DNA from: Euglena gracilis
Taxonomy: Eukaryota
Length of the DNA: 64,000 nt
NCBI GenBank assembly: GCA_039621445.1
Contig: CP154954.1
Span: 2,852,001-2,916,000, forward strand
Direction of reading: 5' to 3'
How positions within the stretch are numbered: position 1 is the stretch's first letter; each line of letters begins with the position of its first letter. This document shows, piece by piece, positions 1,111-39,586 of this stretch. A program made the translations under genes and the position numbers. The notes under the pieces are model-generated. The model was not told the DNA's origin. It ran no database searches and saw nothing but the letters and a program-made list of their open reading frames with translations.

Positions 1111-1160
1111 ATGATGTTGCAAATGTTGTCACGCTCCTCGTTCGCATCGATTTCCCCCCG
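1111..1160 (+). CDS. Exon 1 (putative start, [16 protein letters not shown])
   Basis: ATG at 1111; following intron gacaa..aaaa pairs with tttt..ttgtc at ~1339-1349 and phase is kept; start codon unverified. Confidence 0.45.

Positions 1161-39586: not shown

Follow-up and report, generated by a model that had tools for sequence, protein, structure and literature searches.

Most of a Euglena gracilis nuclear gene lies within the window, by which we mean the whole 64,000-nucleotide stretch of DNA that was analysed, and all 37 of its complete introns are very probably nonconventional introns of the euglenid type. The coding sequence is divided into at least 39 small GC-rich exons on the plus strand, and the boundaries of the introns between them can be derived from a transcriptome protein. 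The overall base composition of the window is that of GC-patchy eukaryotic DNA. The translation of one GC-rich island (15952-16110, plus strand), used as a query against the protein collection, returned a single match, P0001 (eukprot:EG_transcript_694), a protein of 1253 residues that is 100% identical over 75% of the query; the EG_transcript naming scheme is the one used in a Euglena gracilis transcriptome paper, in the portion of that source available (PMC6366073). Mapping by tblastn and exact 5-mers placed P0001 residues 1-1139 in 38 colinear blocks on the plus strand. When the 38 exons are spliced in silico they give 3414 nt, or 1138 codons, with zero stops, no frameshift and a GC3 of 0.896, and 1127 of the 1139 aligned positions (99%) are identical to P0001, the 12 differences being 11 substitutions and one missing codon. 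On this comparison the gene in the window and the one that gave rise to EG_transcript_694 appear to be allelic or strain variants, and as P0001 comes from the E. gracilis transcriptome, the 99% identity also served to test the host, which is a euglenid.

The exons are 28-196 nt long (median 91.5, GC 0.71) and the introns 114-1897 nt (median 559, GC 0.53), with 15 introns in phase 0, 10 in phase 1 and 12 in phase 2. The preliminary description of this DNA had estimated about 40 introns, which is fair, since 37 introns are complete and a 38th is represented by its 5' end (Table 1). The majority of exon borders can be slid by a few nucleotides. An alternative start for exon 16, after the AG at 15950-15951, was rejected because the mapping puts the start at 15937.

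Table 1. Features mapped in the window. Intron ends are given as spacer and triplet (5' end) and as triplet and spacer (3' end); pairs are counted over 10 helix positions; "code" is the published N3-CDG/CH'G-N5-6 with a purine (R) starting the next exon; "example" marks introns given as examples in the preliminary description.
Feature	Position	Strand	5' end	3' end	Next exon base	Pairs (of 10)	Code	Remarks
Candidate outron 3' end	5790-5823	+						C/T-rich tract, AG at 5822-5823; sequence inspection
Coding part (38 exons)	5858-33364	+						P0001 residues 1-1139; k-mer and tblastn mapping
Start codon	5858-5860	+						first P0001 residue maps here; protein begins MGGAAS
Exons 1-8	5858-5952, 6697-6761, 7280-7364, 7956-8005, 8989-9134, 9394-9429, 9618-9693, 10140-10292	+						
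Exons 9-16	10820-10920, 11376-11450, 11743-11882, 12319-12431, 13176-13219, 13334-13414, 15101-15199, 15937-16066	+						
Exons 17-24	16626-16718, 16982-17091, 17699-17766, 18443-18532, 19511-19572, 20568-20598, 21664-21706, 22542-22633	+						
Exons 25-32	23159-23255, 23635-23683, 23909-24046, 24334-24376, 25381-25422, 26265-26358, 27087-27200, 28380-28453	+						
Exons 33-38	28758-28826, 30724-30823, 31323-31420, 31796-31991, 32537-32728, 33335-33364	+						
Intron 1	5953-6696	+	CCC-CAG	CTG-N5	G	8	fits	
Intron 2	6762-7279	+	GCC-CCG	CGG-N5	A	9	outside	variant triplet
Intron 3	7365-7955	+	GAC-CAG	CTG-N5	G	8	fits	example; 7-nt direct repeat
Intron 4	8006-8988	+	TCC-CTG	CAG-N5	A	6	fits	
Intron 5	9135-9393	+	CCC-CAG	CTG-N6	A	9	fits	one residue at junction unlike P0001
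Intron 6	9430-9617	+	GGC-CGG	CTG-N5	G	8	fits with G-U	
Intron 7	9694-10139	+	GTC-CAG	CCG-N5	A	8	outside	GT start, no AG end
Intron 8	10293-10819	+	GAC-CAG	CTG-N5	G	4 (ungapped)	fits	alternative slide 10295-10821 gives 6
Intron 9	10921-11375	+	CCC-CAG	CTG-N5	G	9	fits	example
Intron 10	11451-11742	+	AAG-CAG	CTG-N5	A	8	fits	
Intron 11	11883-12318	+	GCC-CAG	CTG-N5	G	8	fits	
Intron 12	12432-13175	+	GCC-CAT	ATG-N5	A	9	outside	variant triplet
Intron 13	13220-13333	+	AGC-CAG	TTG-N5	A	9	outside	variant triplet; shortest (114 nt)
Intron 14	13415-15100	+	GCT-CGG	TCG-N5	A	10	outside	variant triplet
Intron 15	15200-15936	+	GCC-CAG	CTG-N5	A	6	fits	
Intron 16	16067-16625	+	AGC-TGG	CCA-N5	A	9	outside	variant triplet
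Intron 17	16719-16981	+	TCC-CAG	CTG-N5	A	10	fits	example; sole junction unslidable at protein level
Intron 18	17092-17698	+	GTC-ATG	CAT-N5	G	9	outside	variant triplet; GT start, no AG end
Intron 19	17767-18442	+	GGG-CAG	GTG-N6	G	8	outside	variant
Intron 20	18533-19510	+	AGA-CAG	CTG-N5	A	8	fits	
Intron 21	19573-20567	+	GAG-CAG	CTG-N5	A	10	fits	example
Intron 22	20599-21663	+	GCT-CAG	CTG-N5	G	7	fits	
Intron 23	21707-22541	+	TCC-CAT	GTG-N5	G	9	outside	variant triplet
Intron 24	22634-23158	+	CCC-CGG	CCG-N6	C	4	triplets fit	next exon begins C; alternative slide 22638-23162 gives 8
Intron 25	23256-23634	+	GGC-CAG	CTG-N5	G	8	fits	
Intron 26	23684-23908	+	AGC-CAG	CTG-N6	A	8	fits	
Intron 27	24047-24333	+	GGC-CAG	CTG-N5	G	6	fits	
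Intron 28	24377-25380	+	GCC-CCG	CGG-N5	A	10	outside	variant triplet
Intron 29	25423-26264	+	GCC-CTG	CAG-N5	G	8	fits	
Intron 30	26359-27086	+	CCC-CAG	CTG-N5	G	8	fits	
Intron 31	27201-28379	+	GCC-CAG	GTG-N5	G	8	outside	variant; anchored allowing one-codon difference from P0001
Intron 32	28454-28757	+	GGC-CAG	CTG-N5	G	10	fits	example
Intron 33	28827-30723	+	ACC-TGG	CCA-N5	G	9	outside	variant triplet; longest (1897 nt)
Intron 34	30824-31322	+	GGG-CAG	CTG-N5	G	7	fits	12 protein-compatible slides
Intron 35	31421-31795	+	ACG-CAG	CTG-N5	G	10	fits	example
Intron 36	31992-32536	+	CCC-CAG	CTG-N5	G	9	fits	example
Intron 37	32729-33334	+	GAC-GGG	CCG-N5	G	9	outside	variant
Intron 38, 5' end	33361-33373	+						CAG at 33364-33366; last mapped residue 1139 at 33362-33364

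The length of each intron is fixed by the flanking reading frames and only the donor position slides, and for every intron we listed all slides, between 1 and 12 positions, that keep the best agreement with P0001. The junctions derive from the protein of another allele or strain, and most of them can be slid by 1-11 nt. At every protein-compatible slide, GT/GC-AG or AT-AC ends are found in 0 of the 37 introns, which bears out the earlier claim that this gene is spliced almost entirely without GT-AG. The preliminary description had also proposed that cutting introns 3 nt ahead of complementary end sequences and about 5 nt past them brings GC-rich islands together in frame. The GC-rich exons of the plus strand do join in this manner, with cuts 3 nt before and 5-6 nt after the complementary ends, and the coordinates of the seven introns that it gave as examples agree exactly (7/7) with the junctions that we derived independently from P0001. 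[quoted passage not shown] The predominance of pyrimidine-purine junctions in the preliminary description is likewise seen, with C or T as the last base of the upstream exon at 31 of 37 junctions and G or A as the first base of the downstream exon at 36 of 37, a figure to which the choice of register contributed since purines were favoured among equivalent slides. These junctions match the descriptions of euglenid nonconventional introns in the available text of two recent surveys (PMC12501133; PMC11170887), as the earlier identification of the intron type had it.

Helix pairing at 8 or more of 10 positions is found in 30/37 introns, with a mean of 8.19 in the best registers, and at 6 or fewer in the listed register of 5/37. 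Choosing a register among 1-12 slides inflates such counts, and the non-cognate control, in which each 5' end was set against the 3' end of every other intron (n = 1332), was given equal slide freedom. Computed with an earlier, incorrect anchor for intron 31, as were all the permutation, slide-offset, duplex-energy and direct-repeat figures given here, cognate ends form 8.08 of 10 pairs compared with 5.71 for non-cognate ends (sd 1.40), a mean that 0 of 10000 permutations reach. When the first triplet is excluded, cognate ends retain 5.49 of 7 pairs versus 4.23 (0/10000 permutations), and with the 3' partner displaced by 1-3 nt the mean over 10 positions falls to 5.89-7.11 pairs. Co-folding of intron ends had been suggested as a check, and the duplex energy between the first and last 24 nt is -22.1 kcal/mol for cognate and -16.5 kcal/mol for non-cognate ends (n = 1332; 0/10000 permutations). 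Direct repeats make the junction slidable at the nucleotide level in 29/37 introns (78%), with a mean repeat length of 2.59 nt and a range of 0-9.

By this control the ends pair above chance, but the statement of the preliminary description that intron ends are defined by base-paired termini claims too much in terms of sufficiency. The cognate partner ranks first by duplex energy in only 7/37 introns and among the top three in 15/37. For the 23 code-fitting introns there is a median of 39 code-compatible 3' partners within 2.5 kb, and the true partner outscores all the others in 5/23 by pairs and in 6/23 by duplex energy. A scan of the window for the code with at least 9/10 pairs yielded 1878 candidate pairs on the plus strand and 2050 on the minus strand, compared with 1017-1056 in block shuffles (about 1040), and passed only 6 of the 37 true introns; we rejected it as non-specific for finding introns. 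The paired ends are real, yet simple pairing measures fail to single out introns. Since the code alone rarely picks the true partner, further determinants would have to exist.

In the mechanism that we favour, a helix would pair intron positions from +4 onward with positions from -6 (or -7) backward, usually opening with CAG paired to CTG, and would juxtapose the two junctions at set offsets of 3 nt (5') and 5-6 nt (3'), with a purine starting the next exon. The 37 introns would follow the published nonconventional excision pathway, and the mRNA would begin by spliced-leader addition at about 5823.

The protein encoded by this gene has few relatives. Pfam returned nothing above threshold for P0001 (the best was SKA2, E 0.32), and a word-based homologue search with P0001 found P0001 itself alone. 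HMMER identified one full-length homologue among 1.84 billion representatives, P0002 (1410 aa), which is 45% identical to P0001 over 616 residues at the N-terminal end and 32% identical over 376 residues up to the last residue; P0002 likewise has no match in Pfam. On these searches the EG_transcript_694 protein appears to be restricted to euglenids and to be without a Pfam domain. Armadillo/HEAT-like clusters were retrieved for P0001 in a protein atlas with scores of 0.94-0.95, which we treat as a lead only, and the N-terminal half of the protein is probably helical-repeat. The N-terminus MGGAAS would, on our own reading, fit a myristoylation motif. The other HMMER hits, P0003-P0007, are 74-150 aa long, come from contigs of 0.5-1.8 kb and match single exons at 46-94% identity; they look like open reading frame calls extending beyond an exon into the adjacent intron. 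That public collections hold such single-exon pieces gives modest support to the earlier expectation that gene finders fragment genes of this kind. It also serves as an annotation warning, as public protein collections hold only single-exon scraps from genomic contigs.

The restriction of the gene to one lineage bears on a question of origin, namely whether MITE-like transposons that inserted into the gene supplied the paired ends as their inverted termini and the adjoining direct repeats as their target-site duplications. Such an origin, which is compatible with nonconventional excision of the introns, has been suggested in print (PMC12501133, in the part available). It would accommodate the single full-length homologue, the inverted terminal sequences (at least 8/10 pairs) in 30/37 introns and the direct repeats at 29/37 junctions, with their mean of 2.59 nt and maximum of 9 nt. 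However, the direct repeats range in length between 0 and 9 nt, whereas a fixed duplication would have a single length, and all-against-all BLASTN of the 37 introns returned 18 hits, all of them internal repeats and none over an intron terminus, so that a shared family of intron elements with common termini or bodies was not visible in this comparison. We regard a MITE-like origin as rather unlikely.

Turning to the ends of the gene, the preliminary description had placed these at 1111 and 39586, which does not agree with the mapping. The ATG at 1111 opens a short frame outside P0001, and 1111-5857, ahead of the coding sequence, is mostly microsatellite. The upstream microsatellites, at 1800-3060, 3360-3500 and 5470-5750, are (CACCA)n with (CCATA)n (about 1.2 kb), (AT)n and, directly before the start codon, (ATT)n. 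The AG at 5822-5823 is a plausible spliced-leader acceptor, judging by the C/T-rich tract before it; C-rich tracts precede outron AG sites in the published account (PMC11170887, as far as the available text goes). The stop codon at 39586 closes another short frame, also outside P0001, and no P0001 exon maps past 33364.

The exon that ends at 33364 is followed by an ordinary nonconventional 5' motif, but the last 114 residues of P0001 (1140-1253) are encoded in none of the window's six frames. The C-terminus of P0001 is conserved to the last residue in P0002, so the missing residues are genuine. A search of the window with the whole P0002 protein found nothing beyond the mapped exons, the P0002 C-terminus being likewise absent, and a search for a 3' arm complementary to the 5' end of intron 38 gave 11 matches where 13.67 are expected by chance. 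The real 3' end of the gene is missing from the window: either the last intron is longer than 30 kb and extends beyond the window's end, crossing the 163-nt tandem arrays and the CA-rich array described below, or the copy present here has been truncated or mis-joined. According to the latter reading, the window would carry a 3'-truncated or mis-assembled duplicate and the transcript would come from a different locus; the form of the introns would remain nonconventional, and neither expression nor completeness of this copy would be required. The absence from the window of residues conserved in P0002, the 11 substitutions and one-codon gap relative to P0001, and the long tandem repeats downstream of 33364, including a 4.5-kb CA-rich array, are in keeping with this. 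On the other hand, 1138 codons have stayed open with no frameshift or stop at 99% identity, the 5' motif right after the last mapped exon is an ordinary one, and the missing C-terminus is explained equally well by a long last intron or by 3' exons beyond base 64000. We consider a truncated or mis-assembled copy unlikely.

The 30.6 kb beyond 33364 is rich in long tandem repeats. At 35776-38102, downstream of the last mapped exon, there are tandem arrays of an approximately 163-nt unit in 4.2 and 7.4 copies (79-85% matches). The 4.5-kb CA-rich array at 40127-44601 consists of CA and CCACACACA units with a poly-C-rich stretch at 41482-42013, and its extreme strand skew leaves all three plus-strand frames open for more than 1100 codons each. 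A long (ACATAT)n microsatellite of about 900 nt is also present at 34172-35072. Two minus-strand open frames, 46391-46834 (148 codons) and 46881-47240 (120 codons), have raised third-position GC (0.75 in the first). Neither has a Pfam match and a homologue search with the first was empty; these frames at about 46.4-47.2 kb may be due to chance or may represent an exon of some other gene. A search of the window against Rfam gave no family.

Repeats also occur within the introns of the gene. The bodies of introns 3, 8, 14, 15, 19, 25, 31, 33 and 34 share interspersed repeats of 40-220 nt at 73-96% identity, which are never at the intron ends (for example, between 28827-30723 and 30818-31316). 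Intron 16 contains telomere-type TTAGGG repeats in inverted orientation, at 16370-16387 on the plus strand and 16456-16467 on the minus strand; telomere-type matches with at most one mismatch number 5 in the window against 0.37 expected. At the start of intron 20, directly after exon 20, a 21-nt tandem repeat (18534-18660) keeps the exon frame open, and retention of the intron would read a repeated MTGTPQR.

It is very unlikely that the ordinary spliceosome removes these introns via non-canonical dinucleotides, with the terminal helix merely juxtaposing the sites. The excision machinery is unidentified according to the available text of PMC12501133, nonconventional splicing is spliceosome-dependent in some other species (PMC11170887, in part) and two of the 37 introns (7 and 18) have GT as their first bases in the register chosen, but GT/GC-AG ends are wholly lacking, the mutationally defined code rests on CAG/CTG triplets, fixed spacers and the helix and not on terminal dinucleotides (PMC12501133), and the portion of PMC6221363 available describes nonconventional 5' ends without U1 complementarity and their removal later than that of spliceosomal introns.

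The intron type found here is already known, having been described genome-wide and dissected genetically, and is the majority class in Euglena. In the parts of the surveys available, Gao et al. (2024; PMC11170887) put the E. gracilis counts at 12,186 conventional introns and 16,151 nonconventional ones, the latter with a consensus of CCAGG at +3 to +7 and CCTG at -9 to -6, and Nomura et al. (2025; PMC12501133) assigned 71.8% of 649,158 E. agilis introns to the nonconventional class, with E. gracilis comparable, and found 84.4% of introns to be slidable. Across these surveys nonconventional introns make up 57-72% and conventional introns 28-43% of the total; the excerpt of Ebenezer et al. (2019) gives 8.5% nonconventional among 271 introns. 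Knock-in experiments defined the code 5'-N3CDG-/-CH'GN5-6, followed by a purine (R) at the junction and combined with an obligatory helix, which covers 61.2% of nonconventional introns, and showed these cis elements to be necessary and sufficient for excision; among swapped second-position configurations CTG-CAG alone retained splicing, per the main text (PMC12501133). For tubA, the intron is reported to be excised as a circle. Nonconventional introns, according to Guminska et al. (2018; PMC6221363, in part), are excised after spliceosomal ones and are often gained at new positions.

Two points may go beyond what is in print, and we advance them together only tentatively, as the odds are somewhat against them. 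By our own arithmetic the chance that 37 of 37 introns would be nonconventional under independence is about 1e-9 at 43% conventional introns (E. gracilis) and about 5e-6 at 28% (E. agilis). Since the lack of any conventional intron among 37 is improbable under independence, intron classes would appear to be sorted by gene; the main texts of the published surveys contain no per-gene tabulation of intron class that we could find, and their supplements may hold one. Gene-wise sorting, if true, would be in line with a gene that arose within euglenids and acquired all of its introns by the nonconventional route. Secondly, the 13 outside-code introns form 8-10 of 10 pairs in the same register (mean 8.92 versus 6.28 for non-cognate ends), and since they keep this helix at the exact offsets, helix geometry, rather than the identity of CAG and CTG, may set the cuts. 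The locus provides a compact natural test set of 37 nonconventional introns in one transcript, 23 within the code and 13 outside it, the latter including triplets that the published code excludes.

In comparison with known systems, the introns of this gene share with U2-type (GT/GC-AG) and U12-type (AT-AC) introns the interruption of coding sequence in three phases, and would, as the colinearity of P0001 with the spliced exons indirectly suggests, share their precise removal from the mRNA; the terminal dinucleotide rule of those classes holds in 0/37. Introns 7 and 18 combine a GT start with a nonconventional helix, as in the euglenid intermediate introns (PMC4770533, in part), but neither ends in AG, and the available text of the same source questions whether the intermediate class is distinct. 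The noncanonical introns of diplonemids belong to a different organism group (PMC12621601, in part), and marine diplonemids also carry nonconventional introns (PMC6221363). With the nonconventional introns of euglenids (Milanowski et al., PMC3935182 and PMC4770533, and the surveys above, each as far as available), the introns described here share the lack of GT-AG ends, motif positions, spacers, helix, purine and slidability through short direct repeats. The published code fits 62% of them compared with 61.2% in print, and 78% are slidable compared with 84.4% (PMC12501133). The 13 outside-code introns carry paired triplets such as CCG/CGG, CAT/ATG, TGG/CCA and ATG/CAT, and conventional introns number 0/37 here whereas they make up 28-43% of the published sets, from which these introns show no difference in kind.
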